Assembly (NCBI GenBank): GCA_030152145.1 | Contig: JASLIL010000018.1 | Location: 5,100-69,099, forward strand | Length of the DNA: 64,000 nucleotides | From: Tissierellales bacterium | GTDB taxonomy: Bacteria; Bacillota; Clostridia; Tissierellales; JASKZW01 | Direction of reading: 5' to 3' | Part shown: one piece after another, positions 1 through 32,032 of the stretch | Layout: the number at the start of each line of letters is the position of its first letter | Numbering within the stretch: the first letter of the stretch is position 1 | Made by a program: the position numbers and the translations under genes | Notes under the pieces: model-generated | What the model was told of the DNA's origin: nothing | Databases searched by the model: none | The model's input: the letters and a program-made list of their open reading frames with translations, nothing else

Positions 1-2288
1 AGATCGTAGATGCAACTTATAAAAAATACGAAGGTGCAGTTTCCACACCAGAACTTAGAGGATTGGTGCTTAAGGAGATTATGTCCAATAAGAAGTTGTG
101 TATTAATGATGGAGAACTAATAGTGGGTGAAAGAGGAGAGGCACCAGCTGCAACTCCAACCTATCCAGAGCTATGCTGTCACACAGTTGAAGATATGGAA
201 ATAATGAACAAGAGAGAGAAGATTTCCTTTAAAGTTAGGGACGAAGACATGAAGCTTCAAGAAGAAACTATAATTCCTTACTGGGAAAAAAGATCTATGA
301 GACACCATATTCTAGAAAATATGACAGACCAGTGGAAGGACTGCTACTATGCAGGTATATTCACTGAGTTCATGGAACAAAGAGGACCAGGACACACTGT
401 AGCCGATAAAAAAGTTTTTGAAAATGGTTTTGAGGACTTCCAAAAGAGAATTCATGAAGAAATAGAAAATCTTGATTACCTTAATGATGATAGGGCTCTA
501 GATAAGCTTAACCAATTAAAGGGTATGAGCATTGCTTGTGATGCAGTTATGATATTGGGAGACAGATACTCAGAATATGCTAAGGAGCTAGCAGAAAAAG
601 AAAGTGATCCAAAAAGAAAAGAAGAGCTTCTAGAAATATCAGAGGTTTGTGCCCATGTACCAAGAAAGGCTCCAAGAACTTTCAGAGAAGCCCTACAAAT
701 GTACTGGTTTGTACACCTATGTGTAATTACAGAGTTAAATCCATGGGATTCATTTAACCCAGGAAGACTGGACCAGCACTTAAATCCTTTCTATGAAAAG
801 GAAACTTCTGAGGGAACTTTAAGTCGTGAAGAAGCAGAAGAACTACTGCAATGTTTCTGGGTGAAGTTTAACAACCAACCAGCTCCTCCAAAAGTAGGAG
901 TTACCCTAAAGGAAAGTGGAACTTATACAGACTTTGCCAATATAAACAGTGGTGGTTTAAAAACAGATGGTACTGATGGTGTAAACGAAGTTAGCTACTT
1001 GGTTTTAGATGTTATAGATGAAATGAAGCTTCTTCAACCAAGCTCAAATGTTCAAATCAGCAAGAAGACTCCACAAAAATTCTTAAAAAGAGCCTTAAAG
1101 ATAGTTAGAAAGGGTTGGGGTCAACCATCAATCTTCAATACAGATACTGTAATTCAAGAGATGTTAAGGGCAGGAAAATCTATAGAAGACGCAAGAGATG
1201 GCGGTAACTCAGGCTGTGTTGAAACAGGTGCTTTTGGTAAGGAATCATTTATCCTAACAGGATATTTTAACCTTCCAAAGGTTTTAGAAATAACCCTAAA
1301 TAATGGACTAGATCCTATTAGTGGAAAGCAATTAGGTATAAAGACTGGTGATCCAAGAGACTTTGAAACTTATGATGAATTATTTGAAGCTTTCAAGGCT
1401 CAGATGGAACACTTTATAGATATAAAGGTTAGAGGTAACAGAGTAATTGAAAGACTTTATGCTACTAAGATGCCAGTACCTTTCCTATCAGTTATAATTG
1501 ATGACTGTATATCAGAAGGAAAGGATTACAATGCAGGTGGTGCAAGATATAACACAAGCTATATCCAAGGTGTTGGTATAGGTAATATTACTGACGCTCT
1601 TTCAAGTATTAAATACAATGTATTTGATGAAAAGAAGGTAAGTATGGATGAGCTTCTAAAGGCTGTAGAGGCTAATTTTGAAGGCTATGAAGAATTACAC
1701 TACCAAGTAACTAGAAAAACTCCTAAGTATGGTAATGATGATGACTATGCTGATACTATAATGCAGGATGTCTTCAATGCCTACTATGACGAGGTTACAG
1801 GTAGACCAAATGGTAAGGGCGGAGTTCATAGAATAAATATGCTACCTACAACCTGCCATGTTTACTTTGGATCAGTTATAGGAGCTACTACAGATGGTAG
1901 ACTGGCTCACTTACCACTAGCAGATGGTATTTCACCTTCAAAAGGAGCAGATACTTCAGGACCTACAGGAGTTATTAAATCAGCTTCAAAGATGGACCAC
2001 ATTAAGACTGGTGGAACCTTATTAAATCAAAAGTTTACACCTTCTATAGTAGCTGGTGAAGATGGACTAGATAACCTGGCTCACTTTGTTAGGGCTTATT
2101 TCACTATGGATGGTCACCATATTCAGTTTAATATTATAGACAGGGATACACTTTTAGATGCTCAAGAAAATCCAGATGACTATAAGAATTTAATTGTTAG
2201 GGTAGCAGGCTATAGTGATTATTTTGGAAACCTAGACAAGGCTTTACAAGATGAAATCATAGCAAGAACAGAACAAACTTTTGAGTAA
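1..2288 (+). CDS. hypD: glycyl radical enzyme, probable trans-4-hydroxy-L-proline dehydratase (5' end outside window)
   Basis: The reading frame is open from nt 3 to the window edge, so the track Met at 63 is internal. It has the C-terminal glycyl-radical motif RVAGYSDYF and the GCVE Cys/Glu loop typical of dehydratase-type GREs. The implied size is above 760 aa. proC follows directly, as in characterised HypD loci. Confidence 0.75.
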   Translation, partial: IVDATYKKYEGAVSTPELRGLVLKEIMSNKKLCINDGELIVGERGEAPAATPTYPELCCHTVEDMEIMNKREKISFKVRDEDMKLQEETIIPYWEKRSMRHHILENMTDQWKDCYYAGIFTEFMEQRGPGHTVADKKVFENGFEDFQKRIHEEIENLDYLNDDRALDKLNQLKGMSIACDAVMILGDRYSEYAKELAEKESDPKRKEELLEISEVCAHVPRKAPRTFREALQMYWFVHLCVITELNPWDSFNPGRLDQHLNPFYEKETSEGTLSREEAEELLQCFWVKFNNQPAPPKVGVTLKESGTYTDFANINSGGLKTDGTDGVNEVSYLVLDVIDEMKLLQPSSNVQISKKTPQKFLKRALKIVRKGWGQPSIFNTDTVIQEMLRAGKSIEDARDGGNSGCVETGAFGKESFILTGYFNLPKVLEITLNNGLDPISGKQLGIKTGDPRDFETYDELFEAFKAQMEHFIDIKVRGNRVIERLYATKMPVPFLSVIIDDCISEGKDYNAGGARYNTSYIQGVGIGNITDALSSIKYNVFDEKKVSMDELLKAVEANFEGYEELHYQVTRKTPKYGNDDDYADTIMQDVFNAYYDEVTGRPNGKGGVHRINMLPTTCHVYFGSVIGATTDGRLAHLPLADGISPSKGADTSGPTGVIKSASKMDHIKTGGTLLNQKFTPSIVAGEDGLDNLAHFVRAYFTMDGHHIQFNIIDRDTLLDAQENPDDYKNLIVRVAGYSDYFGNLDKALQDEIIARTEQTFE

Positions 2289-2410: not shown

Positions 2411-3217
2411 ATGAGTAAAACATTAGGTTTTATAGGTAATGGAAATATGGGTAGAGCTATGATAGGTGGTATAATCAATGCCAATCTATTTGCAGCAGAA
2501 GATATTATAGTTTCTGATATATTTGAAGAGGGATTAAAAGACGTACATAAGAAATTAGGTGTAAATGTTACAACAGACAATTGTGAGCTAGCAAAAAAAG
2601 CAGATATTATAGTTCTTTCAATTAAGCCTAACCTATATCCGATGATCATAAAGCAAATCAAGGATGCAGTTAAGGAAGATGCAATTATAGTTACAATAGC
2701 GGCAGGAAAAGCTATTGCTGATACAGAAGCTAACTTTGGCCGTCAAATGAAGGTAGTAAGAGTTATGCCTAACACTCCTGCCCTAGTAGGTGAAGGAATG
2801 TCAGCTCTATGCCCTAGTGAAGCAGTTACAGAGGAAGAGTTTAAGGTAATAGAAGATATGTTCAATAGCTTTGGTAAGGCTGAAAAAGTTCAAGAATACC
2901 TAATGGACGCTGTAACATCTGTAAGTGGATCATCACCAGCCTATGTATATATGTTTATAGAGGCTATGGCAGATGCAGCAGTACTAGACGGAATGCCAAG
3001 ACCACAGGCCTATAGATTTGCAGCTCAGGCAGTTTTAGGTTCAGCTAAAATGGTTTTAGAAACAGGAATGCACCCAGGTGTCCTAAAAGACATGGTTTCT
3101 TCACCAGCAGGAACAACTATAGAAGCTGTAGCTAAACTAGAGGAAAAAGGCTTTAGAGATGCTGTTATTTCAGCTATGAGAGCTTGTACTAAAAAGTCAC
3201 AGGAAATGTCTAAATAA
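2411..3217 (+). CDS. proC: pyrroline-5-carboxylate reductase
   Basis: 268 aa with an N-terminal Rossmann motif GFIGNGNMG and the conserved C-terminal SSPAGTTIE region of P5C reductases. An AAGGAGG RBS lies upstream. Confidence 0.9.
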   Translation: MSKTLGFIGNGNMGRAMIGGIINANLFAAEDIIVSDIFEEGLKDVHKKLGVNVTTDNCELAKKADIIVLSIKPNLYPMIIKQIKDAVKEDAIIVTIAAGKAIADTEANFGRQMKVVRVMPNTPALVGEGMSALCPSEAVTEEEFKVIEDMFNSFGKAEKVQEYLMDAVTSVSGSSPAYVYMFIEAMADAAVLDGMPRPQAYRFAAQAVLGSAKMVLETGMHPGVLKDMVSSPAGTTIEAVAKLEEKGFRDAVISAMRACTKKSQEMSK

Positions 3218-5164: not shown

Positions 5165-6559
5165 TTGGACTACAAAAGCATGATAGAATTGATGATAAAG
5201 CATTTAGACGAAGGTGTTATAGTAATAGATCATGATTTAAAAATCGTCTATTTCAACGAACCTTCAACATCCATTACAGGATATGACGTAGATAAAGCTA
5301 TAGGTAAGGATATATTTGAAGTATTTCCATCCTTAGACAGGAAAAGCAGTATTCTTTGTAAGGCCATACATAGTAAAGAACCTATTATTGATTACATACA
5401 GAACTATACAAATTGTGTTGGAAAGGAAGTCTCCATTTTAACTTCTACCATACCTATAGTAGAAGAAGGTGAAGTTAAGGGAGCTATAGAGATATTTAAA
5501 GACCTAACCCATGTCAGGGAATTATCAGAAAAGGTGCTTATGCTACAAAATACTCTATATGAGAAATCAAAAGATCAGGAAATATTTTTACCCAATGGAA
5601 CTCAATACACTATTAATGATATAATAAGTAAGAATGAAAGAATGGATGGGCTTAAGGAAAGAGTTCTGAAAATTTCAAATAGTAGCTCACCAGTATTCGT
5701 ATATGGAGAGACAGGTACAGGTAAGGAGCTTTTGGTACAGGGAATACACAATTCCAGTATCAGAAGGGAAAAGCCCTTTATAGCACAAAACTGTGGGGCC
5801 CTACCAGAAAATCTCTTAGAGAGTATTCTTTTTGGAACAGTACAGGGAAGCTTTACTGGAGCCAAGGACAAGCCAGGACTTTTTGAACTGGCAGATGGTG
5901 GGACATTATTTCTAGATGAAATCAATTCTATGGACATAAACTTACAAACCAAACTTCTTAGGGTTATAGAAAATGGTATAGTAAGAAGAATTGGTAGCAC
6001 AGAAACCAAGCATGTAGACGTTAGAATAATAGCAGCATCAAATGTAGAACCAGAATTACTACTAGAAGGAAATAAGTTAAGGGAAGACCTATATTACAGA
6101 CTAAATGTAATATACTTTGAACTACCACCACTAAGGGAAAGAAAGGAAGATATACCCTTACTGGTAAATAAATTTATAGATAAGTGTAATAAAAAGCTTC
6201 ATAAAAACATCAATGGTATAAGACCAGAGGTTTTAAGTTTGTTTGTAGAAAGAACTTGGTCAGGTAATGTAAGGGAACTTCAAAATGCCATAGAGTCATC
6301 CATGAACTTTGCAGAAGGAGACTATATAGAGCTGGAAGATCTAAACCTGCCAAGAGAAAGACAGACAGTAGATTCAGAAGATCTTGACTTTGAAAGTCTT
6401 GATTTTGATTTAAAGGACGCAGTTGAAAGGTATGAGATGGAAATTATAAAATCTGCCTTGATGAACACTGAAAACAACTGTGCTGCAGCTGCCAGGAAAC
6501 TAAATGTTCCAAAGCAGACCCTTCATGGAAAAATCAAACGCTATAAGATAATGTCTTAA
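5165..6559 (+). CDS. sigma-54-dependent transcriptional activator (PAS - AAA+ - Fis-type HTH)
   Basis: N-terminal PAS-like domain, Walker A GETGTGKE, the sigma-54 contact loop GSFTGA (a GAFTGA variant), ESILFG, and a C-terminal HTH (AAAARKLNVPKQTLHGKIKRY). The start is TTG, following GGTGG. Confidence 0.9.
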   Translation: MDYKSMIELMIKHLDEGVIVIDHDLKIVYFNEPSTSITGYDVDKAIGKDIFEVFPSLDRKSSILCKAIHSKEPIIDYIQNYTNCVGKEVSILTSTIPIVEEGEVKGAIEIFKDLTHVRELSEKVLMLQNTLYEKSKDQEIFLPNGTQYTINDIISKNERMDGLKERVLKISNSSSPVFVYGETGTGKELLVQGIHNSSIRREKPFIAQNCGALPENLLESILFGTVQGSFTGAKDKPGLFELADGGTLFLDEINSMDINLQTKLLRVIENGIVRRIGSTETKHVDVRIIAASNVEPELLLEGNKLREDLYYRLNVIYFELPPLRERKEDIPLLVNKFIDKCNKKLHKNINGIRPEVLSLFVERTWSGNVRELQNAIESSMNFAEGDYIELEDLNLPRERQTVDSEDLDFESLDFDLKDAVERYEMEIIKSALMNTENNCAAAARKLNVPKQTLHGKIKRYKIMS

Positions 6560-6590
6560 AAACGAGACGAAAAGTACCAAAAACAAGACG
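6558..6590 (+). promoter_or_regulatory. phased direct repeats, candidate enhancer (UAS) for the sigma-54 activator
   Basis: AAAAACGAGACG (6558-6569) and AAAAACAAGACG (6579-6590) match at 11 of 12 positions. Their starts are 21 bp apart (two helical turns), and they lie roughly 50-80 bp upstream of the -24 element. Confidence 0.4.
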
Positions 6591-6638
6591 GCATTAAGGT
6601 TAGCAAAAACAACTTGTGTATTTCACTGACTTACAAGT

Positions 6639-6654
6639 TGGCAAGCTAATTGCA
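6639..6654 (+). promoter_or_regulatory. sigma-54 (-24/-12) promoter
   Basis: TGGCAAGCTAATTGCA. The GG (6640-6641) and GC (6652-6653) have exactly the spacing of the TGGCACG-N4-TTGCW consensus. I found no good sigma-A promoter in 6560-6812. The activator gene lies immediately upstream. Confidence 0.8.
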
Positions 6655-6812
6655 ATATATATACTGTATAGATACAAACCAAGGAATATTTGAATAAGTT
6701 AGACTATTCAATATTGTTTGAAGATTACTTTAGTTTGAATTAAGTGAATATTTTAAATCTGTTCACTATTTCAATAAATAAAACACTTAAATAATTTTAG
6801 GGGGTAGGAAAC

Positions 6813-8579: not shown

Positions 8580-8599
8580 GACATTTTTATGAACCTAAT

Positions 8600-8628
8600 G
8601 GCAAGATGTAGATTATCTACATCTTGCC
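8600..8628 (+). promoter_or_regulatory. intra-operon stem-loop between the SBP and permease genes
   Basis: GGCAAGATGTAGA-tta-TCTACATCTTGCC is a perfect 13-bp stem with no T tract after it. Confidence 0.6.
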
Positions 8629-8666
8629 TTATATAAAAGGTTAGCACCAAAGTAAGGAGGAGAAAG

Positions 8667-9596
8667 ATGTTTAAATTTATAGTAAAAAGAGTATTTTACT
8701 CATTAATTACACTATTCCTTATAATTACTGCTACATTCTTTTTAATAGCAGGAGCACCTGGAGATCCAATAGCTGCAAAAGCAGAACAAATGCCAGAACA
8801 AGCCCAAGCAGTAATAAAGGCAAAATATGGTTTGGATAAGCCCGTGGGTCAAAGATATGTAAAGTACATGAAGGACCTTATCACAACAGGAGATTTTGGT
8901 GAATCAATAGTATTCACAGGTAAATCAGCTAATGATGTTATTAGAGAAAATGCACCCATATCAGCTAAGATTGGTATAATTGCAGTTGTATTACAGTTTA
9001 TTATAGGAGTATTTTTAGGAATGGTTTCAGGATTAAATAGAGGAAAAGTCGGAGACCATGTTATCAGGGTATGTGTTGTATTAGCAATTTGTATTCCTGG
9101 ATTTGTATTCGCAGCATTATTACAATACTTTATAGCATTTAAGTGGAAGTTGCTTCCAGTATTTGGTTGGGGACAACTTAAGCACTATGTACTACCAGTA
9201 TTAGCCTATACTATAGGTGGTATTGCTTCATATACTAAGTATATGAGAAGTAGTATATTGTCAGTAGTAAATGAAGACTACATTATCACAGCTAAGGCAA
9301 AAGGTTGTTCAAAGAAGAGAATCATTAAAAAGCATATGTTTAGAAACTCAATGATTCCTATTGTAACAATGGTAGGACCTGCTATAGCGGGTATATTCGG
9401 TGGATCATTCGTAATTGAGAATATGTTTGGTATACCAGGATTAGGATCTTACTATATGAAAGCTGTAGGTGACAATGACTATACAATGGTTTTAGGATTA
9501 ACTGTATTCTTTGCAGCGCTTTACGTTGTATCATTAATATTCGTAGACATTGCATATGGAATAGTAGACCCAAGAATCAAGATAGCAGAAGACTAA
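8667..9596 (+). CDS. peptide ABC transporter permease (OppB/DppB-like)
   Basis: 309 aa and polytopic, with an EAA-type loop (KAKGCSKKRIIKKHMFRNS). Operon context supports the call. Confidence 0.85.
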   Translation: MFKFIVKRVFYSLITLFLIITATFFLIAGAPGDPIAAKAEQMPEQAQAVIKAKYGLDKPVGQRYVKYMKDLITTGDFGESIVFTGKSANDVIRENAPISAKIGIIAVVLQFIIGVFLGMVSGLNRGKVGDHVIRVCVVLAICIPGFVFAALLQYFIAFKWKLLPVFGWGQLKHYVLPVLAYTIGGIASYTKYMRSSILSVVNEDYIITAKAKGCSKKRIIKKHMFRNSMIPIVTMVGPAIAGIFGGSFVIENMFGIPGLGSYYMKAVGDNDYTMVLGLTVFFAALYVVSLIFVDIAYGIVDPRIKIAED

Positions 9597-9632
9597 AACT
9601 ATTAGCACACACTTAAGTTAGGAGGTTAATAT

Positions 9633-10571
9633 ATGGCAAATGTGAATGAAAACACAAAAAACATTTCAAAAGATATGTTTAGACGTGTTGGAGTAGATGA
9701 GACAGACTCAGAAAGACTAGATAAACCTTCACTTACATATTGGGCAGACGTTTGGAGAAGGTTTAAGGAAAATAAACTTGCCATGTTTGGTTTAATTCTA
9801 TTAACATTAGTTGTAATAACTATATTTGTAGGACCAACATTAGCGGGTAAAGATTATCAATACATGGATGCAAGTAAGAAAAACTTAAGACCAACGAGTG
9901 AACATTGGTTTGGTACAGATGATATGGGTAGAGACCTATTTACAAGGGTTTGCTACGGTGGTAGAATTTCTATATTAATAGGTCTACTATGTACTATAGT
10001 AATGTTCGTTGTAGGATCTTTATTAGGAGCATTAGCAGGATTAAAAGGTGGGGTTGTAGATAACCTTATAATGAGATTTACAGAGTTTATAGGTAACTTA
10101 CCTTACTTGATTATAGTAATAATACTTACTATGGTTATGGGAAGAAGTATCTTCTCACTAGTATTTGCCATGAGTATTTTATCCTGGGTAGGAACTACTA
10201 GGATGGTTAGAGGGCAGATACTACAGTTAAAGGAAATGGATTATATTCAAGCAGCAACGGCTTTAGGAGCTGGAACTGGTAGAATAATAATGAAGCATTT
10301 ACTTCCTAATACGCTGGGAATAATAATGGTAACAATAACAATGTCTGTTCCTGGATTTATATTCAGTGAGGCATTCTTAAGCTTTATCGGTCTTGGTGTT
10401 AGACCACCAGAGACAAGCTGGGGAGCATTAGCATCCGGTGGTAAAGAAAGACTTATGTTCCATCCACATATTTTATTTTTCCCAAGTTTGATGATCGTTT
10501 TAACTGTATTAGCATTCCACTTAATCGGTGACGGATTATCAGACGCATTGGATCCAAAATTAAGGGAGTAG
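9633..10571 (+). CDS. peptide ABC transporter permease (OppC/DppC-like)
   Basis: 312 aa with the N-terminal OppC-type extension, HWFGTDDMGRD, and an EAA loop (AATALGAGTGRIIMKHLLPN). Confidence 0.85.
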   Translation: MANVNENTKNISKDMFRRVGVDETDSERLDKPSLTYWADVWRRFKENKLAMFGLILLTLVVITIFVGPTLAGKDYQYMDASKKNLRPTSEHWFGTDDMGRDLFTRVCYGGRISILIGLLCTIVMFVVGSLLGALAGLKGGVVDNLIMRFTEFIGNLPYLIIVIILTMVMGRSIFSLVFAMSILSWVGTTRMVRGQILQLKEMDYIQAATALGAGTGRIIMKHLLPNTLGIIMVTITMSVPGFIFSEAFLSFIGLGVRPPETSWGALASGGKERLMFHPHILFFPSLMIVLTVLAFHLIGDGLSDALDPKLRE

Positions 10572-10581
10572 GTGAATTGTA

Positions 10582-11628
10582 ATGACAAATGAAGATAAAA
10601 TTTTAGAGATAAATAATCTGCATGTATCATTTAAAACATACGCAGGTATTGTTAAAGCAGTTAGAGGTGTAGACTTCCACTTAAACAAGGGGGAAACTCT
10701 TGCTATAGTAGGAGAATCTGGTTGTGGTAAGACTGTAACAGCTAAGGCTATAATGGACTTACTTCCAGTAGAGAATACTATTATTAGTGGAGAAAATGCC
10801 TTTGTTAAATTTAGAGGCAAAAATCTTTTACAATTTAAAGAATCAGAGATGGAAGAAATCAGAGGTAAGAGAATATCAATGATATTCCAAGACCCTATGA
10901 CTTCTTTGAACCCAACTATGAGAGTTGGAGATCAGATAGCTGAAAGTATCTTCATTCATGAAGAGCTTTCTAAAGAAGATGCTAAAAAAGCAGCTCTAAA
11001 GATGCTTAAATTAGTTAATATACCAAATGCAGAGGAAAGAATGAATCAATATCCATTTGAATTCTCAGGCGGTATGAGACAAAGAGTTATGATTGCTATA
11101 GCACTTGCTTGTAACCCAGAAATACTAATAGCAGATGAACCAACTACTGCTCTAGACGTTACAATTCAAGCGCAAATAATGGAACTTATAAAAGAGTTAC
11201 AAATTGAAATGAACACTGGAGTAATACTTGTTACTCACGACCTTGGAGTTGTTGCTAGTGTTGCAGATAGAATTCAGGTAATGTATGCTGGTATGATTCT
11301 TGAAAGAGGAACTACAGATGAAATATTCTATAGTCCAAGACATCCATACACACATGCCTTATTAAGATCTGTACCAAAACTTACAAGTACAAAGCAAGAA
11401 AGATTATATTCACTTGTAGGTACACCACCAGATTTAACAAATCCACCAAAGGGATGTCCTTTTGCGGCTAGATGTGAATATGCTATGCAGGTTTGTAGAG
11501 AAGTCCATCCAGAAACAACTCATTTTAGCTCAACTCATGCTTCAGATTGCTGGTTACACCATCAAGATGCAGACCTAAATGGAGTACCAGAGGAGCTTTT
11601 AGAAAGAGGTGTTGAATATGGAAAATAA
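10582..11628 (+). CDS. peptide ABC transporter ATP-binding protein (OppD-like)
   Basis: Walker A GESGCGKT, signature FSGGMRQR, Walker B ILIADEPTTALD, and an oligopeptide-type C-terminal extension containing Cys residues. Confidence 0.9.
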   Translation: MTNEDKILEINNLHVSFKTYAGIVKAVRGVDFHLNKGETLAIVGESGCGKTVTAKAIMDLLPVENTIISGENAFVKFRGKNLLQFKESEMEEIRGKRISMIFQDPMTSLNPTMRVGDQIAESIFIHEELSKEDAKKAALKMLKLVNIPNAEERMNQYPFEFSGGMRQRVMIAIALACNPEILIADEPTTALDVTIQAQIMELIKELQIEMNTGVILVTHDLGVVASVADRIQVMYAGMILERGTTDEIFYSPRHPYTHALLRSVPKLTSTKQERLYSLVGTPPDLTNPPKGCPFAARCEYAMQVCREVHPETTHFSSTHASDCWLHHQDADLNGVPEELLERGVEYGK

Positions 11629-12607
11629 AGAAAAAGAAGTATTAGTTAGTGTTAAGAATCTGAAAAAATACTTCGAAGTTGGTAGAAATCTATATGTTCA
11701 AGCAGTAGATGATGTTAGCTTTGATATATATAAAGGAGAAACACTAGGACTAGTAGGAGAGTCAGGTTGCGGTAAGACTACTTGTGGTAAAACTGTAATA
11801 GGACTTTATGATGCTACTGAAGGTGAAGTTTTATTTAAGGGTGAAGATGTTCACTCATTAGATAAGAAGGAGAAAAAAGAGTTTACTAAAAAAGCTCAAA
11901 TTATTTTCCAGGACCCTTACGCATCCTTGAACCCAAGAATGACTGTTGGAGATATAATAGGAGAAGGTATAGATATACATCACCTAGCAGAAGGACAAGA
12001 AAGAGAAAATATGATTCTGGATCTTTTAAGAACTGTAGGGCTAAACAAGGAGCATATCTCAAGATTTGCTCATGAGTTCTCAGGTGGACAAAGACAAAGA
12101 ATTGGTATTGCTCGTGCCCTAGCTATACAACCAGACTTTATAGTTTGTGATGAGCCTATATCAGCTCTAGACGTATCTATCCAAGCTCAGGTAGTAAACC
12201 TACTTATGGACTTACAAAAGAAACAAGGATTAACATATTTATTTATTGCCCATGACCTATCAATGGTTAAATACATTTCAGACAGAGTTGGAGTAATGTA
12301 TTTAGGACAGATGGTAGAGTTAACTACAAGTGATGAATTATATGATAATCCACTACACCCATATACAAAAGCTCTAATGTCAGCTATACCAGTAGCAGAC
12401 CCTAAGATTGAAGAGGAAAAACATAGAATTCCTATTAAGGGAGAGATTCCTTCACCAATCAATCCACCAGCTGGATGTAGGTTTAGAAAGCGTTGTAAGT
12501 ATGCAGAGGAAATTTGTAAGACAAATCCAGAGTTTAAAGAACACAAACCAGGCCACTTTGTTGCTTGTCACTTAGTTGGTACAGGTAAAATAGAAGATAA
12601 GTATTAG
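11618..12607 (+). CDS. peptide ABC transporter ATP-binding protein (OppF-like)
   Basis: Walker A GESGCGKTT, signature FSGGQRQR, Walker B FIVCDEPISALD. I prefer the ATG at 11618 (RBS AAGAGG 8 nt upstream) to the track GTG at 11609. It overlaps the oppD-like stop. Confidence 0.9.
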   Translation: MENKEKEVLVSVKNLKKYFEVGRNLYVQAVDDVSFDIYKGETLGLVGESGCGKTTCGKTVIGLYDATEGEVLFKGEDVHSLDKKEKKEFTKKAQIIFQDPYASLNPRMTVGDIIGEGIDIHHLAEGQERENMILDLLRTVGLNKEHISRFAHEFSGGQRQRIGIARALAIQPDFIVCDEPISALDVSIQAQVVNLLMDLQKKQGLTYLFIAHDLSMVKYISDRVGVMYLGQMVELTTSDELYDNPLHPYTKALMSAIPVADPKIEEEKHRIPIKGEIPSPINPPAGCRFRKRCKYAEEICKTNPEFKEHKPGHFVACHLVGTGKIEDKY

Positions 12608-12617
12608 GAGGTAGTTC

Positions 12618-13733
12618 ATGTTACTTAGAGACGGAATTATTCACATAGGGAATGGTCAAGTCTTAGAGGGATATGATATCTTAATTGCTGATTCTAAAAT
12701 AGTTAAAGTAGATAAAAATATTTCTGCAGATAATGTGGAAATTATAGAAATCCAGGGAATGCATGTATTTCCTGGATTTATAGACCCTTTAAGTTCATAC
12801 GGAAGTATGGACTTAACTTTTTCTATGAAGGATAATAATGAAGATACAGATCCTATTCAGAAGGACTTGGAAATAAAATATGCTTTTAACCCAGCGGAGA
12901 TAAAGCTGGAGGGACTGGAAACTGTAGGTATTACAAATATAGGGGCTTCACCTGGAAACTATAATATAATAGGTGGAAACATATCCCTTTATAATACATA
13001 TGAAGAGGAATTTAGAAGGTTCTTAGTAAGGGAAGATCTGGGACTAAAGGGAGCAGCTTCAGAAGTAGTAAAGGATATATTTAAGGAAAAAAATCAAGTT
13101 ATGACTAAGATGGGACTTTTTAAAAGGCTGGAAGACTGGCTACAAGAAAGTAAGAAGGAAGAGGGAAGCCTATCTAAGAAGGTTGTAGAAGGGGAAAAGC
13201 CGCTGTTTATCCATGCAAATACAGAAATGGAGATAAATTCTGTATTAAATGTTTTTAAGGATACAAAGGTTAGGCTAGTTTTACTGGGGGCCTATGAGTT
13301 TCACAAGTGTTTGAAAGCCATAAAGGACTATGGAAATATAGGCTTGATAATAGGTGAGCAAACTAATTTAACAATTAGGGGCTATTATGAAACTCAGTTA
13401 GAGAAGGCTAGAGAACTAACTAGTGAGGGTATACCAGTAAGTCTTACCTTAACAGGAGAGTATGGACCAGAAGGTAAGGTCAAGTATCTTTGGAATGCTA
13501 TAGAGTTTTATAAAAGAGGCCTGGCTTCAGAGGAAGTTATATCCTATATGACTCTTAATCCAGCCAAGATGCTGGGGGTAGATGATATCTTAGGAACTAT
13601 AGAAGAGGGAAAACTAGCTAATATGGTAGTCTATGAAAACAACCCTATTGAAACTTATGATAGTAGATGTAAAAAGACTATTATAAATGGCAAAATAGTA
13701 TATCAGGGAGGTTTTGATAATGCTACTTATTAA
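12618..13733 (+). CDS. amidohydrolase-superfamily paralog with degenerate metal site (probable non-catalytic subunit)
   Basis: It aligns along its length with the ORFs at 13720 and 30881, but the ligand positions are replaced. PGFIDPLSSYG stands in place of the HxH motif, PLFIH in place of PLK-H, IIG in place of LDH, and LTLTG in place of TTDAP. Confidence 0.7.
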   Translation: MLLRDGIIHIGNGQVLEGYDILIADSKIVKVDKNISADNVEIIEIQGMHVFPGFIDPLSSYGSMDLTFSMKDNNEDTDPIQKDLEIKYAFNPAEIKLEGLETVGITNIGASPGNYNIIGGNISLYNTYEEEFRRFLVREDLGLKGAASEVVKDIFKEKNQVMTKMGLFKRLEDWLQESKKEEGSLSKKVVEGEKPLFIHANTEMEINSVLNVFKDTKVRLVLLGAYEFHKCLKAIKDYGNIGLIIGEQTNLTIRGYYETQLEKARELTSEGIPVSLTLTGEYGPEGKVKYLWNAIEFYKRGLASEEVISYMTLNPAKMLGVDDILGTIEEGKLANMVVYENNPIETYDSRCKKTIINGKIVYQGGFDNATY

Positions 13734-14862
13734 GAATACTAAAATCTACACCATGGAAGACAGGGGAATTATTGATGGGGACATTCTGATTGAGGATGGA
13801 AAAATAGTAAGGATAGCTGATAGTATAGATGAGAAGTATGAAAATACTATTGATGGTCAAGGTCTTATAACTATGCCAGGAATAATAGACTGCCACTCTC
13901 ATATAGGTGGTATGATCTTTAAACATGACAGGAGTCATGACTCCAATGAGATGACCAAGAACATAACACCAGATGTAAATATAATATATGGAACAGATCC
14001 CCAATCACCAGACTTTAGGTTTGCCCGTGAAAATGGTATAACAAGTCTGGGAATAACACCAGGTAGCGGTAATGTTATATGTGGTCAGGTTATAGCAAGT
14101 AAAACCTATGGTGATAATATCTTCCAAATGACCATGAAAAATCCAGTAGCTTTAAAGGTTGCTCTGGGAGGAAATCCTAAGGGAACCTATGGCAGTAGAA
14201 AGCAACTTCCTAGTACTAGAATGGGAGTGGCTAAGGTTTTAAGGGACTACCTAAGTGATGGTAGAGAGTATTTAAAAAAGAAGGCTGAGAATAAGGAAGA
14301 CTTTAAGATAGATCCTGAATTTGAAGTACTAGAGCCAGTCTTCAAAAAGGAGATACCACTTAAGATTCACTGTACTCAGTTTGATATATTGACAGCTATT
14401 GAAATAGCTAAGGAGTTTGATCTGGATTTTAGCTTGGATCATGCCTGGGGTGCTGTAGACTATATAGATGAAATAGTTGAAAGCGGCTGTGAGGTTGTCT
14501 ATGGACCAATAGGAAGTAGAAGGATTTTTGGGGAGTTAAGATTAATAGATATAGAAAGCTGTAAAACTCTTCATGAAAAAGGAGTTAGGGTAAGCATAAC
14601 AACAGATGCTCCCTTAAATAGTATAGATAGCTTAATGCATCATCTGGGAGAGGTAGTAAGGGCAGGACTTCCATATACAGAGGCCCTTAAAATGCTAACA
14701 ATAAATCCAGCCAAGGTTCTAAGGCTGGAGGACAGGATTGGTTCTATAAAAGAAGGTAAGGATGGAGATCTTGTAATCTTCAGAGGGCTACCAGCCTATG
14801 AAACGGATGCAAGGGTAGCATATACAATAATAGATGGAAAAATAGTATACAAGGGAGAGTAG
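13720..14862 (+). CDS. amidohydrolase-superfamily metallohydrolase (intact HxH / K-H / DH / D ligand set)
   Basis: It carries IDCHSHIGG, PLKIHCT, SLDHAWG and ITTDAP. The ATG at 13720 has RBS GGGAGG 8 nt upstream and gives MLLIKN, parallel to its paralogs. It overlaps the preceding ORF by 14 nt, suggesting translational coupling. Confidence 0.8.
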   Translation: MLLIKNTKIYTMEDRGIIDGDILIEDGKIVRIADSIDEKYENTIDGQGLITMPGIIDCHSHIGGMIFKHDRSHDSNEMTKNITPDVNIIYGTDPQSPDFRFARENGITSLGITPGSGNVICGQVIASKTYGDNIFQMTMKNPVALKVALGGNPKGTYGSRKQLPSTRMGVAKVLRDYLSDGREYLKKKAENKEDFKIDPEFEVLEPVFKKEIPLKIHCTQFDILTAIEIAKEFDLDFSLDHAWGAVDYIDEIVESGCEVVYGPIGSRRIFGELRLIDIESCKTLHEKGVRVSITTDAPLNSIDSLMHHLGEVVRAGLPYTEALKMLTINPAKVLRLEDRIGSIKEGKDGDLVIFRGLPAYETDARVAYTIIDGKIVYKGE

Positions 14863-14882
14863 TTAAAAGCTACTCTTTTTTT
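14856..14882 (+). terminator. rho-independent terminator closing the transporter/amidohydrolase operon
   Basis: AGAGTAG-ttaaaag-CTACTCT followed by a T7 run; it overlaps the stop codon. Confidence 0.8.
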
Positions 14883-15039
14883 ATAAAAAAAATAAGTCAT
14901 TAAATAGCTTTGATAATTTATCTTTTTATAAAGTTTGACTGGAATAGTAAGAAGATTTAGATTAGTCCACATTCTTAGCTAGAATTGTGGATAGATCTTA
15001 GGAATAGAAAGACTTATTAACAGTATTGGGGGGATTTAC

Positions 15040-17379
15040 TTGAAGAAGAAGTTTATGATTCTTATGGCCTTAGTCCTAATTTTAAGCTCTTGTAGTCAGG
15101 AGGAAAAACAGGAATTAAAGTCAGTGGTGGCCTTAATTAATTTTTCAGACTATAAATTTGAAGAAATAGACAGGCGGGAAGAAGACTTGATCAACAAGTA
15201 TTCTGGCAAGGACTACAACAAAAGTCTTTATCAGTCTATGTTTTTCGGTGAGGACTATTATAAGGGCAGCAATGGAGATGACTATATGACCTTGAGGAAA
15301 TACTATAGGGATCTTTCAGGAGGCAACTTAGATATTACAGGATCTGTTTATGGCTTCTACCAGGGCAGGGAAGAAGCCAGCTATTATGGTGCCAATGTAA
15401 ATGGCCTTTATTCAGATCAAAAGTCAGCTGTAGACCTGGTAATAGAAGCCTGTGAAAATCTAGCAGAAGATAAAAGTCTAGATCTGGCTAACTTTGCAAA
15501 AAACGGAAGAAATATAGACAGCCTTATAGTTATACATCCAGGAATAGGGGAAGAGTGGGGTGGAGGATCCTTGGGAGAAGAGGCAATCTGGCCCTTTAGG
15601 GGAAAGATATCCTGGTTTGAAAATCTAGACTACAGCCATTTAAAAATAAAGGACTATAGGGGTAAAGAATATATTTTTGATGACTTTATAATAGTAAGTC
15701 AAGACCTGGCCCCCTCCCTAATAGCCCATGAATATGGACATATTTTAGGACTTCCAGATCTTTATGGATTTGAGGGCAGTACACCACCTACAGAGTACTG
15801 GTCTCTTATGAGCAGCTCCTATGCAGGCAAGGATGTTTTTGGATCCATGTATATAGATATGGGTGCCTACTGTAGGTATAAACTAGGGGACTATCAGGAT
15901 ATGGAGGGCTTTTATAATTTAAGGGAAATAGACTATAGGGAGCTTAATAAGGCCCTGGAGCTGGAGCTTAGGGAAAGCAACCAGAGAAGTGGGGCTATAG
16001 ACCTAGTAAAGATAAATATGGAGCCTAGAAAACATAGGGAAAAGACTCCCAGCTCAGGAGAATATATGTATGTCTCCCATGGTGGCAGGGACAATAATCA
16101 TATGTCCTTGGACCTGGATTTAAGAGGTATAGTAGACTTAGAGTTAGAAATGGATTTAAGCCTTCATCTTAAGGAAGACTATGACAGCCTTAGCCTTGTT
16201 ATAGAAGATTTGAGAACAGGAGAGAAGGAGGCCTTGGAATCAAGGGAAGGCCAGGCCATGATTAAAAAGCTTAGCCTATTTGATCTATATGGGGAAAAGG
16301 TGGAGATGCAAAAAGCTATTAAGGCTTTTACTGGCATGAAACCAAAGTGGACCAAGTACAGCTTTGATTTGGACAACTATTCTGGCAGAAGGGTTAGGAT
16401 TCACTTTTACCACAGTGCCCTAGAAGAAAATCCGGTTTATATAGATAATATCTGCCTTAAGTCTGAGGGCCAGGAAGTTCTGGTTTTTGACGCTGAGGAG
16501 GATAAAAAAGAAGTAGATTTAGGTGATTTTGAAATAAGTGATGGTAGGACAGAAGAGGAAAGCTACTATCTTTTAGAGTGGAGAAATCCTAGGAAGGGTT
16601 CTATAGATGAGGGTCTAGGATATATAAATAAAAATAGGAAGGGCTTTTCCTATGATCCAGGCCTAGTCATCTGGTATGTAAATGAAAGATTTGATGACTA
16701 TGGCAGGATAGATCAGAATGTATCAGTCTATACAGGTAAGCCTTCTGTAGGAGTAGTAGATAGTGATCAAAATCCACCTCTAGTAATTCAGAAGGGCCAG
16801 GAAGAAAAGGACAAGTCAGCTGTAACTAATATGGCAGATGCAGCCTTTGGCCTGGGAGTCCAGGATTACTATAAGATAAAATTAGGGGATGGACTAGTAG
16901 AAGATAGACATCTTTATAAAAATCCATACTTTAACAGTGGTCTAGACTATAGTAACAGTCATAGTCCTATGCTGGGTATGAAGCTAGATGCTAAGGATCT
17001 GAGGATAAATATAGTTGAGCAGGACAGGAACAATAGCTATGGAAAACTAGTGATTTCCAGGGACCATCTGGAAAAGAAGGGCCAAGAAATTCAGCTTAAG
17101 AGCATAGACTTTATAGCTGATGAGTTGGTAGTAGACCTAGGTAAAAAACCTAGGGATCAATACTATATAGGGCTTATAAATAAGGAGGGTCATAGCCTAA
17201 GACTGGCCCTGGAAATAATAGGAGATAAATTAGTCCTAAACACAGCTAATTCAGAATACTTGAAGGCCTCCTATGACATAGACTATATAGTTTTACTGGA
17301 GGATAGCTATAGGACCATATATAACAAAAAGTTTCATCCTATAGGGCAAGATCTGGAAATAAAAAATAAGTCTAAATAA
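15040..17379 (+). CDS. M6 family metalloprotease lipoprotein (immune inhibitor A-like)
   Basis: Signal peptide with lipobox LSSC and a zinc motif HEYGHILGLPDLY that is characteristic of InhA/M6. At 779 aa it has the family-typical size. The start is TTG, following GGGGGG. Confidence 0.8.
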   Translation: MKKKFMILMALVLILSSCSQEEKQELKSVVALINFSDYKFEEIDRREEDLINKYSGKDYNKSLYQSMFFGEDYYKGSNGDDYMTLRKYYRDLSGGNLDITGSVYGFYQGREEASYYGANVNGLYSDQKSAVDLVIEACENLAEDKSLDLANFAKNGRNIDSLIVIHPGIGEEWGGGSLGEEAIWPFRGKISWFENLDYSHLKIKDYRGKEYIFDDFIIVSQDLAPSLIAHEYGHILGLPDLYGFEGSTPPTEYWSLMSSSYAGKDVFGSMYIDMGAYCRYKLGDYQDMEGFYNLREIDYRELNKALELELRESNQRSGAIDLVKINMEPRKHREKTPSSGEYMYVSHGGRDNNHMSLDLDLRGIVDLELEMDLSLHLKEDYDSLSLVIEDLRTGEKEALESREGQAMIKKLSLFDLYGEKVEMQKAIKAFTGMKPKWTKYSFDLDNYSGRRVRIHFYHSALEENPVYIDNICLKSEGQEVLVFDAEEDKKEVDLGDFEISDGRTEEESYYLLEWRNPRKGSIDEGLGYINKNRKGFSYDPGLVIWYVNERFDDYGRIDQNVSVYTGKPSVGVVDSDQNPPLVIQKGQEEKDKSAVTNMADAAFGLGVQDYYKIKLGDGLVEDRHLYKNPYFNSGLDYSNSHSPMLGMKLDAKDLRINIVEQDRNNSYGKLVISRDHLEKKGQEIQLKSIDFIADELVVDLGKKPRDQYYIGLINKEGHSLRLALEIIGDKLVLNTANSEYLKASYDIDYIVLLEDSYRTIYNKKFHPIGQDLEIKNKSK

Positions 17380-17478: not shown

Positions 17479-17871
17479 ATGACAGAAGAAAAACAAATGA
17501 CTGACCTTGAAAGGGAAAAGTGTCATAAGATAATACATGGTGTAGCAGCTTCTACAGCAGCAATAGGTGCAGGTCTAGCCCAAGTACCAGGATCTGATAG
17601 TGTGGCCATAGTCCCCCTTCAGATAAGTATGATTATGGGCTTAGGGGAGGTTTTTAATAGGAAGATCACCAAGACATCAGCCAAGGCAATCCTTACAACC
17701 CAGATAGCAACAATAACTGGCAGAAGCCTTTCTCAATTTTTAGTGGGATGGATTCCAGTAGCTGGAAATATAATAAATGCAGCTACAGCAGCCAGTATAA
17801 CAGAGGCCATAGGTTGGGGAGCAGCCAATAGTTTTGCCAAGGAAAGAAACTTAAATGTCTTAGACAGCTAG
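17479..17871 (+). CDS. small DUF697-like membrane-associated protein
   Basis: 130 aa with a Gly/Ala-rich pattern (AASTAAIGAGLAQVPGSD...IPVAGNIINAATAASITEAIGWGA) that resembles the YcjF/DUF697 domain. The assignment is from memory of the family profile. Confidence 0.5.
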   Translation: MTEEKQMTDLEREKCHKIIHGVAASTAAIGAGLAQVPGSDSVAIVPLQISMIMGLGEVFNRKITKTSAKAILTTQIATITGRSLSQFLVGWIPVAGNIINAATAASITEAIGWGAANSFAKERNLNVLDS

Positions 17872-30864: not shown

Positions 30865-30880
30865 ACCTAGGAGGGATTGG

Positions 30881-32032
30881 ATGTTACTTTTAAAAAATGG
30901 AAGAATATACACTGGAGAAGGAGATATTATTGAGAGAGGGGACATAGTCTTAGATGGCGGCAAGATAGTGGAAATAGGCCAGGATCTTTCAGGCCATGAA
31001 AGCATAGACCTAGAGGGTAGAAATGTCTATCCAGGATTTATAGAGGCTCATTGCCATCTGGGTATGTGGGAGGAAGGTATGGGCTTTGAAGGCAGTGATG
31101 GCAATGAAATGGTAGACCCTGTTACTCCAGAACTTCGTGCCATAGATGCCATAAACCCTATGGACCAAGGTTTTGAAGATGCCTACAAGGCAGGGGTAAC
31201 AACTGTTGTTACAGGGCCAGGATCAGCCAATGTTATAGGAGGTATGTTTGCAGCCATAAAAACCTTTGGAAAGCGAGTAGACAGTATGATTCTTAAGGAG
31301 CCAGTAGCCATGAAGATAGCCTTTGGTGAAAATCCTAAAAGGGTATATATGGACCAGAAAAAATCGCCTATAACTAGAATGGCCAATGCATCAATTCTAA
31401 GGGAGAATCTTTTTAAGGCTAGGATCTATGCAGACAAGAAAAAAGCAGCTGGGGGAGATCTGGAAAAATATCCAGAATTTAATATGAAGATGGAGGCCCT
31501 AGAAAAGGTAATAAACAAGGAAATACCTCTTAAGGCCCATGCCCACAGAGCAGATGATATATTTACAGCTCTTAGGATAGCCAAGGAGTTTGACCTTGAC
31601 ATAAGCCTAGACCACTGTTCAGAAGGACATCTTATAGTTGATGAGCTGGAAAAAGAGGCCAGGGACTGTATCGTTGGTCCAACCTTAACAAATAGGTCTA
31701 AAATAGAGGTGAGAAATAAGACCTTTAAGACTCCGGCCATACTAAATAAGGCAGGAATAAGAATAGCCATAACAACAGATGCACCAGTTATCCCCATAGA
31801 GTACCTGCCTCTTTGTGCAGGCCTAGCTTCTAGATCAGGCTTAGATGAAATGGAAGCCTTAAAGGCCATAACCATAAATCCAGCAGAAATTGTAGGTATA
31901 TCAGAAAGAGTGGGTAGTATTAAGGTAGGTAAGGATGGAGACCTGGTAGTTTATGATGGAAATCCACTAAAGGACATAGATAGTAGGGTTTTTATGACTA
32001 TAATAGATGGAAATATAGTTTATAGAAATTAA
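30881..32032 (+). CDS. amidohydrolase-superfamily metallohydrolase (third paralog, intact ligands)
   Basis: It carries IEAHCHLG, PLKAHAH, SLDHCSEG and ITTDAP. It aligns end to end with the ORF at 13720-14862. Confidence 0.8.
   Translation: MLLLKNGRIYTGEGDIIERGDIVLDGGKIVEIGQDLSGHESIDLEGRNVYPGFIEAHCHLGMWEEGMGFEGSDGNEMVDPVTPELRAIDAINPMDQGFEDAYKAGVTTVVTGPGSANVIGGMFAAIKTFGKRVDSMILKEPVAMKIAFGENPKRVYMDQKKSPITRMANASILRENLFKARIYADKKKAAGGDLEKYPEFNMKMEALEKVINKEIPLKAHAHRADDIFTALRIAKEFDLDISLDHCSEGHLIVDELEKEARDCIVGPTLTNRSKIEVRNKTFKTPAILNKAGIRIAITTDAPVIPIEYLPLCAGLASRSGLDEMEALKAITINPAEIVGISERVGSIKVGKDGDLVVYDGNPLKDIDSRVFMTIIDGNIVYRN

Follow-up and report, generated by a model that had tools for sequence, protein, structure and literature searches.

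A degenerate amidohydrolase encoded with its intact paralog in a peptide-importer operon: a putative two-part enzyme of Bacillota

Pseudoenzymes acting as partners of active enzymes are well known from eukaryotic signalling and from the prozymes of trypanosomatids. Within the amidohydrolase superfamily, PyrC' of the Pseudomonas aspartate transcarbamoylase (ATCase) and the CRMP/DPYSL proteins of animals have kept the fold, lost the ligands and have non-catalytic structural or regulatory roles. A different arrangement is found in a 64,000-nucleotide stretch of a Tissierellales bacterium (GenBank assembly GCA_030152145.1, contig JASLIL010000018.1, positions 5,100 to 69,099; hereafter the window), in which two overlapping genes encode a degenerate amidohydrolase paralog (A) and an intact one (B) at the end of an importer operon, and a solo intact paralog (C) lies further downstream. 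An earlier note, made by a model from the letters of the window, had interpreted A and B as an enzyme/pseudoenzyme heteromer acting on imported peptides. The comparative analysis reported here supports this pairing: the conservation of the degenerate A under purifying selection, its coupling to an intact partner, the sister relationship of the two families and the existence of natural A-B fusions make it probable that A and B belong to one complex in which A is the non-catalytic partner.

Among solved structures, 3OOQ is closest to A, B and C alike; this amidohydrolase of unknown function from Thermotoga maritima was determined by structural genomics and has no known partner. The match extends over the full length (E-values of 1.6e-99 for C, 5.9e-70 for B and 1.3e-30 for A), which places A, B and C in a 3OOQ-like clade, and the ligand layout of 3OOQ (HxH / K / H / H / D) is the same as in B and C. 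It differs from the A/B pair in being a solo, fully liganded homo-oligomer, and it groups with C. Peptidases of the COG1228 type, namely the Sgx9260b/c prolidases (3MKV, 3FEQ/3N2C), the Xaa-Pro dipeptidase 2QS8 and the arginine carboxypeptidases Cc2672 (3MTW) and 3BE7, belong to the same superfamily, have the N-terminal beta-sandwich and C-terminal motifs in common with A, B and C and use dipeptides, Xaa-Pro among them, or N-acyl amino acids as substrates. The statement in the earlier note that some of these enzymes hydrolyse Xaa-Pro or N-acyl-Pro substrates is borne out by the PDB titles of 3N2C and 2QS8. However, they are distant relatives (E 1e-6 to 1e-13, mostly local matches) and homo-oligomers without a dead partner.

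Of the ligand-less amidohydrolase folds, CRMP5 (4B90) appeared as a weak match in the PDB search. Neither PyrC', which supports ATCase, nor the CRMPs, which bind the cytoskeleton, are partnered with a catalytic paralog of their own, whereas the dead copy A accompanies its live sister. A heterodimer of amidohydrolase-fold paralogs has been described for the 2-aminoisobutyrate hydroxylase AibH1H2, in which AibH2 is catalytic and AibH1 mainly structural (PMC12141560). This enzyme differs from A/B in being a Mn/Fe monooxygenase of an unrelated clade and pathway, and its AibH1 binds a structural metal. The closest functional analogy is provided by the trypanosomatid prozymes of AdoMetDC and PRMT1, in which a dead paralog is reported to form a heteromer with its live sister and to activate it (PMC5201418; bioRxiv 10.1101/776112). 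Like a prozyme, A is a paralog lacking catalytic residues that is under purifying selection and co-inherited with its partner. The prozymes have other folds, are eukaryotic and not operon-coupled, and activation is demonstrated there but hypothesised for A/B. In the searched literature, no description was found of the A/B pair, of tandem or inactive amidohydrolase modules or of a pattern with one live module, and within this literature it appears to be new for bacterial amidohydrolases that an enzyme and a dead paralog of it form a conserved pair coupled in one operon. In current annotation, A and B are both called 'amidohydrolase family protein', and neither is covered by a curated family model.

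Gene pair, metal-ligand positions and conservation of A

A, B and C are paralogs, as the earlier note had recognized. End-to-end alignment gave identities of 29% (A/B), 28% (A/C) and 42% (B/C), and all three proteins pass the Pfam gathering cutoffs for Amidohydro_3 (29.7 bits) and Amidohydro_1 (25 bits), with 48.1/43.4 bits for A, 85.6/79.4 bits for B and 70.9/69.1 bits for C. The reported 14-nt overlap between A and B can be read directly at the junction (13720-13733): A ends N-A-T-Y-TAA with its stop codon at 13731-13733, and the ATG of B (MLLIKN) is located at 13720. The ribosome-binding site of B, GGGAGG, lies within the 3' end of A, 7-12 nt 5' of the B start codon, and A itself is preceded by AGGAGG 6 nt 5' of its ATG. 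Such a stop/start overlap favours near-equal synthesis of A and B.

The binuclear site of subtype I is defined by six positions: HxH on strand 1, the bridging Lys on strand 4, a His each on strands 5 and 6 and an Asp on strand 8. B has the complete set (H59-x-H61, K146, H217, H241 and D296) and C carries the same six; the motifs HxH, K-x-H, D-H and T-T-D-A-P listed for both in the earlier note were confirmed by alignment. The corresponding residues of A are L58, S60, K144, H199, G224 and T279. Judged from the sequence, B has the subtype I site and A does not, and A is therefore not classed as a metal-dependent hydrolase. Four of the six positions are lost in the A protein of this genome and five in the consensus of its family (V/I-S-S, K, T, G, T). 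In terms of motifs, A shows L-S-S for HxH, F-I-H for K-x-H, L-G for D-H and T-L-T-G for T-T-D-A. The earlier description of A agrees with the alignment for L-S-S, for the F in place of the Lys of K-x-H and for T-L-T-G, but I-I-G is not the counterpart of L-D-H, which aligns with L-L-G (222-224); I-I-G is found on strand 7. That A has lost every metal ligand, as had been stated, is correct for HxH, the strand-6 His and the strand-8 Asp and too strong for K144 and H199, which are kept. The secondary structure of the AlphaFold2 model places K144 of A (LGLKGAAS) and K146 of B (ALKVALGG) at the end of barrel strand 4, where binuclear amidohydrolases classically carry their carboxylated, metal-bridging Lys, and K144 is kept in at least 85% of the A orthologs. 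The strand-5 His (H199 of F-I-H) is present here, but only 5 of 80 A ortholog clusters keep it. K215 of the K-x-H motif, which had been regarded as the ligand Lys, was rejected as the bridging residue because strand position points to K146; K-x-H with its Lys is a motif of the family, and the bridging Lys on strand 4 is retained in A.

The ligand set is intact in all B partners at the ten loci described below and in 120 of the 120 B-type matches listed. Several residues that are near-invariant in the B family are missing from the solo enzymes, namely C121, C218, which follows the strand-5 His (K-I-H-C), and H307. They hint that the metal site or the specificity of B may have been altered after duplication.

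When 5.8 billion proteins were searched with A as the query, a family of orthologs emerged that comprises 80 clusters (199-817 bits, 31-99% identity), all of them full length (358-391 aa), below which the score drops from 199 to 133 bits. All 80 clusters are degenerate at HxH and D-H and every match under this gap is intact, a distribution far beyond chance. The 80-sequence alignment contains 18 invariant and about 40 near-invariant columns. A codon comparison across ten loci gave nonsynonymous divergences (dN) of 0.29-0.77 for A with saturated synonymous sites (pS of at least 0.63) and a dN_A/dN_B ratio of 1.15-1.8; given the saturation of dS, selection is deduced from an upper-bound argument together with the A/B rate ratio. 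By this measure A appears somewhat relaxed relative to B, yet clearly under purifying selection. The degenerate reading frame is neither absent nor frameshifted in relatives, since about 80 clusters and ten of ten loci have it at full length. The comparison with the closest relative (locus L092) comprises 4 differences in A and 3 in B, and its dN/dS is uninformative. A scan of contigs with back-translated A-family motifs, which are common to all amidohydrolases, returned among the matches listed only distant intact paralogs of at most 29% identity.

The AlphaFold2 (AF2) model of A, computed from the 80-sequence alignment, reached a predicted local distance difference test score (pLDDT) of 93.9 and a predicted template modelling score (pTM) of 0.92. 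The order of strands and helices fits a (beta/alpha)8 barrel between N- and C-terminal beta strands, that is, the composite beta-sandwich and barrel fold of the amidohydrolase superfamily, and a Foldseek search with the model retrieved amidohydrolases exclusively, with 3OOQ as the best match (template modelling score 0.86). Pocket residues of the catalytic lineage that are lost in A include N76, S116, G150, N152, P153, R167, D222 and E272, and residues that A has in common with B and the solo enzymes are D56, D72, E75, K144 and K152. Invariant residues of its own are H9, E205, W292 and Y347. Six paired columns are near-invariant but different in A and B (H9/Y10, G11/M12, S123/F125, W292/H307, I295/G310 and Y347/T362) and variable in the solo enzymes, and from the alignment they would look like co-adapted interface or specificity positions. 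Several of them are located at the C-terminal ends of barrel strands, which form the active-site face, and this would favour a role of A beyond passive scaffolding.

Linkage, origin and fusion of the two modules

The linkage between A and B was analyzed on contigs looked up from seven A-type and three B-type proteins, the latter chosen regardless of A. The resulting ten loci derive from Tissierella sp. MSJ-40, Alkaliphilus peptidifermentans, two metagenome-assembled genomes (MAGs) of Lachnospiraceae, a Cellulosilyticaceae MAG, Cytobacillus dafuensis, Faecalicatena sp. and three metagenomic contigs. A degenerate A lies directly upstream of an intact B in ten out of ten independent loci, with overlaps or gaps of -1 to +14 nt (-1 to +10 in the other nine) and a ribosome-binding site inside the 3' end of A. 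In nine of them the pair is part of a five-gene operon for an Opp/Dpp-type ABC importer, the exception being L088. The substrate-binding protein (SBP) is orthologous to that of the window in five other loci (47-61% identity), and in L085, in L089 and at the fusion locus L093/L094 described below another Opp system accompanies the pair. As the flanking genes differ at every locus, it is the cassette that forms the conserved module. Compared pairwise over the loci, the identities of A (mean 43%) and those of B (mean 56%) correlate with r = 0.91. A further 18 A clusters match a B cluster in the size of the longest contig, and each of these size-matched pairs is presumably co-located on one contig. 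One B-type protein was found in 286 blocks of the assembly collection.

Some of these loci show peculiarities of their own. A third amidohydrolase of 455 aa is encoded on the opposite strand of L088 (5825-7192), with an MFS transporter nearby. In the Lachnospiraceae locus L091 (2601-6827), a WD40/RCC1-like domain is inserted into the OppC-type permease (585 aa), the second ATPase has 491 aa and a GntR regulator separates the pair from the transporter genes. In the window, the gene directly upstream of C is Tex (28759-32032), and the A-B pair of Faecalicatena (L090, 7886-13226) is one gene away from Tex, which may be a coincidence or a trace of an ancestral location.

A neighbour-joining tree of 30 A, 25 B and 33 solo sequences with 2 outgroups recovered A as monophyletic in 100 of 100 bootstrap replicates, B likewise in 100 of 100 and A and B as sisters in 99 of 100; C and the other solo 3OOQ-like enzymes branch outside A+B. 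Two sister clades imply a single duplication of a solo enzyme, after which the metal site was lost in one copy. The crystal of 3OOQ contains 10 chains in dihedral symmetry and serves as a benchmark for such symmetry. Since C is closest to this ten-chain protein, the ancestor was very probably a homo-oligomer, and homo-oligomers are the usual origin of paralogous hetero-oligomers.

An exhaustive profile search with the A family yielded 1249 matches at E-values of 1e-30 or below and revealed a natural fusion, P0246 (771 aa), in which a degenerate module of the A type precedes an intact one of the B type. A follow-up search added P0412 and P0413 (781 aa each), further A-B fusions with the same order. 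The three proteins are mutually 56-60% identical, and their modules are joined by variable linkers of 20-35 aa; P0412 stands for 81 sequences and is found on at least 10 contigs. Its operon reads permease, permease, SBP, fusion, ATPase, ATPase, followed by a peptidase of the S9 (prolyl-oligopeptidase) type. By the Rosetta-stone argument, such fusions suggest that A and B act together physically. The native fusion P0412 was modelled by AF2 from an alignment (A4) that combined the A family with the fusions and with seven two-module proteins found in nature; an alignment of this sequence set covered the A half about 75 deep and the B half about 10 deep. A two-block alignment by MAFFT was discarded, as both families came to lie together on a single half of the fusion. 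The model reached a pLDDT of 90.4 and a pTM of 0.90 over 781 residues, and as a pTM of 0.90 is not reached with independently floating modules, a fixed arrangement of the two modules is predicted.

About 78 of the best 150 of the 1249 matches are secreted proteins of 820-1570 aa with two to four 3OOQ-like modules (e.g., P0259, P0261, P0266, P0268 and P0279), which occur in Acidobacteriota, Aminicenantes, Armatimonadota, Gemmatimonadota and other phyla. When each module was scored at the six ligand positions as intact (I) or degenerate (d), the architectures were Id (26), dId (20), dI (12), dd (7) and ddd (1); the module assignment of P0259 was checked by BLASTP. Two intact modules in one protein were encountered in none of the scored multi-module relatives, and later matches behaved alike. 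The degenerate modules of these proteins have no common replacement pattern, and the PDB contains no structure of a multi-module 3OOQ-like protein. The combination of one live with one or more dead paralogous modules thus appears, from the scored sequences, to be a recurrent design in the 3OOQ-like clade.

Importer operon, regulation and genomic context

The pair closes a peptide-importer operon, in agreement with the earlier note. One transcription unit holds an SBP_bac_5 protein, two BPD_transp_1 permeases and two ABC_tran/oligo_HPY ATPases 5' of A and B, which is the gene set of an Opp/Dpp-type importer, and a hairpin with a U-run is found at the stop codon of B (Table 1). The nearest solved relatives of the SBP are DppE, OppA and MppA, and weaker matches are NikA, CntA and AgaA. 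Both the conservation of an Opp-type cassette and the proximity of its SBP to DppE and OppA fit the proposal that the pair acts on imported peptides.

Table 1. Features of the window around the A/B pair, and the position of the P0412 fusion gene on two other contigs
Feature	Position	Strand	Basis or remark
HypD, trans-4-hydroxy-L-proline dehydratase (glycyl radical enzyme)	63..2288	+	NF043068, 1441 bits (cutoff 1100); N-terminus cut by window edge
ProC, pyrroline-5-carboxylate reductase	2411..3217	+	TIGR00112, 287 bits (cutoff 197)
M24B aminopeptidase-P-type Xaa-Pro peptidase, 594 aa	3292..5076	+	
PAS-domain sigma-54 enhancer-binding protein	5165..6559	+	Sigma54_activat domain; best NCBIfam model PrdR
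Predicted sigma-54 promoter TGGCAAGCTAATTGCA (-24 GG, -12 GC)	6639..6654	+	about 160 nt 5' of SBP gene
Substrate-binding protein SBP_bac_5, 588 aa	6813..8579	+	Opp/Dpp-type importer
ABC permease 1 (BPD_transp_1)	8667..9596	+	domain search
ABC permease 2 (OppC_N + BPD_transp_1)	9633..10571	+	domain search
ABC ATPase 1 (ABC_tran + oligo_HPY)	10582..11628	+	domain search
ABC ATPase 2 (ABC_tran + oligo_HPY)	11609..12607	+	start possibly ATG 11618
Ribosome-binding site of A, AGGAGG	12607..12612	+	first base is last base of ATPase 2 stop codon
A, degenerate amidohydrolase paralog, 371 aa, putative non-catalytic subunit	12618..13733	+	ORF list, alignment, Pfam
Coupling region A/B	13708..13733	+	GGGAGG 13708-13713, then 14-nt overlap
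B, intact amidohydrolase, 380 aa, putative catalytic subunit	13720..14862	+	ORF list, alignment, 3OOQ match
Terminator-like hairpin and U-run over B stop codon, operon end	14851..14882	+	dG -13.3 kcal/mol, z -4.89
InhA-like M6 metalloprotease	15040..17379	+	separate transcription unit downstream of operon
C, solo intact paralog, 383 aa, 3OOQ-like 'solo' clade	30881..32032	+	alignment, tree
P0412 fusion gene	L093 9001-11346; L094 6436-8781		

The operon is predicted to be sigma-54-dependent, with a promoter and a cognate enhancer-binding protein both present. The latter scored 369.7 bits against the PrdR model NF041552, which does not reach the cutoff of 795 bits and leaves the N-terminal 131 profile positions unmatched. 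A 61%-identical ortholog of the activator precedes the cassette in L081. The window and the Tissierella locus each have a sigma-54 activator and a matching TGGCA-N6-TTGCA promoter as the sole such site per locus; outside the window, an equivalent site was found only in L081 and the near-identical L092, the other loci that bear the activator. Other regulators accompanying the cassette belong to the GntR/FCD (Lachnospiraceae, Alkaliphilus) or TetR families. An 8-bp inverted repeat (CAACTTGT-N15-ACAAGTTG, 6610-6617 / 6633-6640), the right arm of which overlaps the -24 element, could be a candidate binding site for a regulator. A scan of positions 6400-15200 against Rfam revealed no RNA family, which speaks against a riboswitch in the leader.

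Upstream of the operon, genes for HypD, ProC and an M24B peptidase are found, and together with the operon and the M6 protease they look, from their gene content, like an island for the utilization of collagen or hydroxyproline peptides. The M6 protease gene and uvrC are separated by an ORF of 130 aa (17479-17871) that has no Pfam match and is kept in L092. In other lineages, an M14 peptidase is encoded inside the operon (L085), and the pair is flanked by an S9 prolyl-oligopeptidase-type enzyme and two M24 enzymes in Cytobacillus (L089). A possible role in the cleavage of Pro/Hyp peptides, which the earlier note had called plausible but unproven, gains support from the context, namely the adjoining HypD, ProC, aminopeptidase P and PrdR-like activator and the S9/M24 enzymes in two other lineages. 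According to the HypD literature, Pro-Hyp resists host peptidases, and the HypD review names no bacterial enzyme that releases Hyp from peptides (PMC6219649). A bacterial amidohydrolase hydrolysing Pro-Hyp was not found in the searched literature either.

Curated equivalog models do not allow a specificity to be transferred by homology, since all scores are far below cutoff. The Xaa-Pro dipeptidase model NF051886 (Caulobacter type, cutoff 500 bits) gave 34.5 bits for A, 51.1 for B and 72.4 for C, and B scored 68.2 bits with the isoaspartyl dipeptidase model TIGR01975 (cutoff 331) and 71.0 bits with the HutI model TIGR01224 (cutoff 298). A function derived from any of these three models was rejected for this reason.

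A two-part enzyme and its alternatives

According to the reading we favour, A and B would be two subunits of one heteromeric amidohydrolase. B with its complete binuclear metal site would perform the chemistry, and A, catalytically dead and still of full amidohydrolase fold, would be an obligate partner for assembly or stability that probably shapes or regulates the substrate pocket. The pair would have been born once, by duplication of a 3OOQ-type solo homo-oligomeric enzyme, and would then have spread through Bacillota together with the Opp/Dpp-type ABC importer. The complex would cut an amide bond in a small peptide delivered by the importer, and an imported peptide does seem rather likely as the substrate. 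In this organism, the sigma-54 promoter and the PrdR-like activator would drive the operon, and the products of short collagen-derived Pro/Hyp peptides would feed hydroxyproline and proline fermentation. Such substrates are suggested because the operon adjoins HypD, ProC and the Xaa-Pro aminopeptidase; a Pro/Hyp specificity is advanced tentatively, as a possibility for this genome that need not hold family-wide.

Alternative explanations concern the role of A as well as the substrate. If A were a decaying duplicate, a pseudogene in progress beside a B that works alone, the loss of four of the six ligand positions and its faster evolution compared to B would fit. However, decay is at odds with a full-length, frameshift-free gene in all of the clusters and loci mentioned above, with the many invariant and near-invariant columns, with a dN far from saturation next to saturated dS, with the high-confidence model and with the retention of A as the N-terminal half of the fusions; the conservation data in effect refute it, and the chance that it applies is negligible. 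A might also be a functional non-enzyme that is independent of B, for instance a ligand-binding or sensor protein, a chaperone or a metal-delivery factor, and form no stable stoichiometric complex. The conserved residues K144, S146, F197, E205 and W292 that line the former active-site end are compatible with ligand binding, and linkage and co-evolution show a shared pathway, not necessarily a complex. This explanation is nevertheless considered quite unlikely, given that three diverged natural fusions join A and B in one polypeptide, that the fusion models as one compact unit, that the multi-module relatives pair dead modules with at most one live module and that the gene overlap favours near-equal synthesis.

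A could still be an enzyme with a non-canonical, metal-poor or metal-free site, in which case the operon would encode two different hydrolases working in sequence. Some members of the superfamily, such as the LigI-type lactonases, act without metal, and A has both its own invariant polar and aromatic residues (H9, E205, W292 and Y347) and the retained K144, D56, D72 and E75. Against this stand the loss of the His and Asp ligands together with the eight conserved pocket residues listed above, the failure to identify in A an alternative constellation resembling a known catalytic site and the lack of a common replacement pattern in the degenerate modules of the multi-module relatives, which make a catalytic A very improbable. 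Finally, an A/B complex could act on a non-peptide compound or a cyclic amide, such as a diketopiperazine (e.g., cyclo-Pro-Hyp), an opine or an N-acyl or ureido compound. The chemistry of the superfamily is very broad and B fits no equivalog model; the weaker SBP matches NikA, CntA and AgaA and the GntR/FCD regulators in Lachnospiraceae and Alkaliphilus point in the same direction. The best SBP matches, in contrast, are the peptide binders, and M14, S9 and M24 peptidases are found in or beside the cassette in several lineages, so that a substrate of this kind is judged unlikely while deserving some weight.

Several observations weigh against the two-subunit reading or its proposed substrate. 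The pTM is an indirect measure of A-B contact, and AF2 may reproduce a learned 3OOQ homo-oligomer interface. The function of A within a complex could be that of a scaffold, an allosteric activator or a substrate-binding subunit, and its retained and invariant residues may permit residual or altered chemistry. The pair in L088 occurs without an ABC importer, and SBP_bac_5 proteins also bind nickel, opines and sugars. No curated equivalog model gives B or C a score anywhere near its cutoff, the adjacency to HypD and ProC is restricted to this species and Pro-specific peptidases are found near the pair in only 3 of about 11 lineages.

A wider reading of the data would extend the two-subunit model to asymmetric pseudo-oligomers across the whole 3OOQ-like branch. 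One live metal centre per set of paralogous modules would have been reached in at least three ways, namely operon pairs, fused pairs and secreted proteins with two to four modules; the dead module would be no passive scaffold and would contribute to or gate the substrate site; and in this organism A/B would be the missing enzyme that supplies the HypD pathway by releasing hydroxyproline from collagen peptides that resist proteases, such as Pro-Hyp. That all three parts hold together is rather doubtful.

The A/B pair is widespread in Bacillota, including very common gut Lachnospiraceae. If the two-part model is true, studies of B-type or multi-module enzymes in isolation would be likely to fail or to mislead, and the pair would provide a clean bacterial system for the transition from a homo-oligomer to an obligate hetero-oligomer with one dead subunit. 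In the organism described here, it would be a candidate for the release of hydroxyproline from peptides ahead of HypD, an open step in the anaerobic catabolism of collagen and hydroxyproline.

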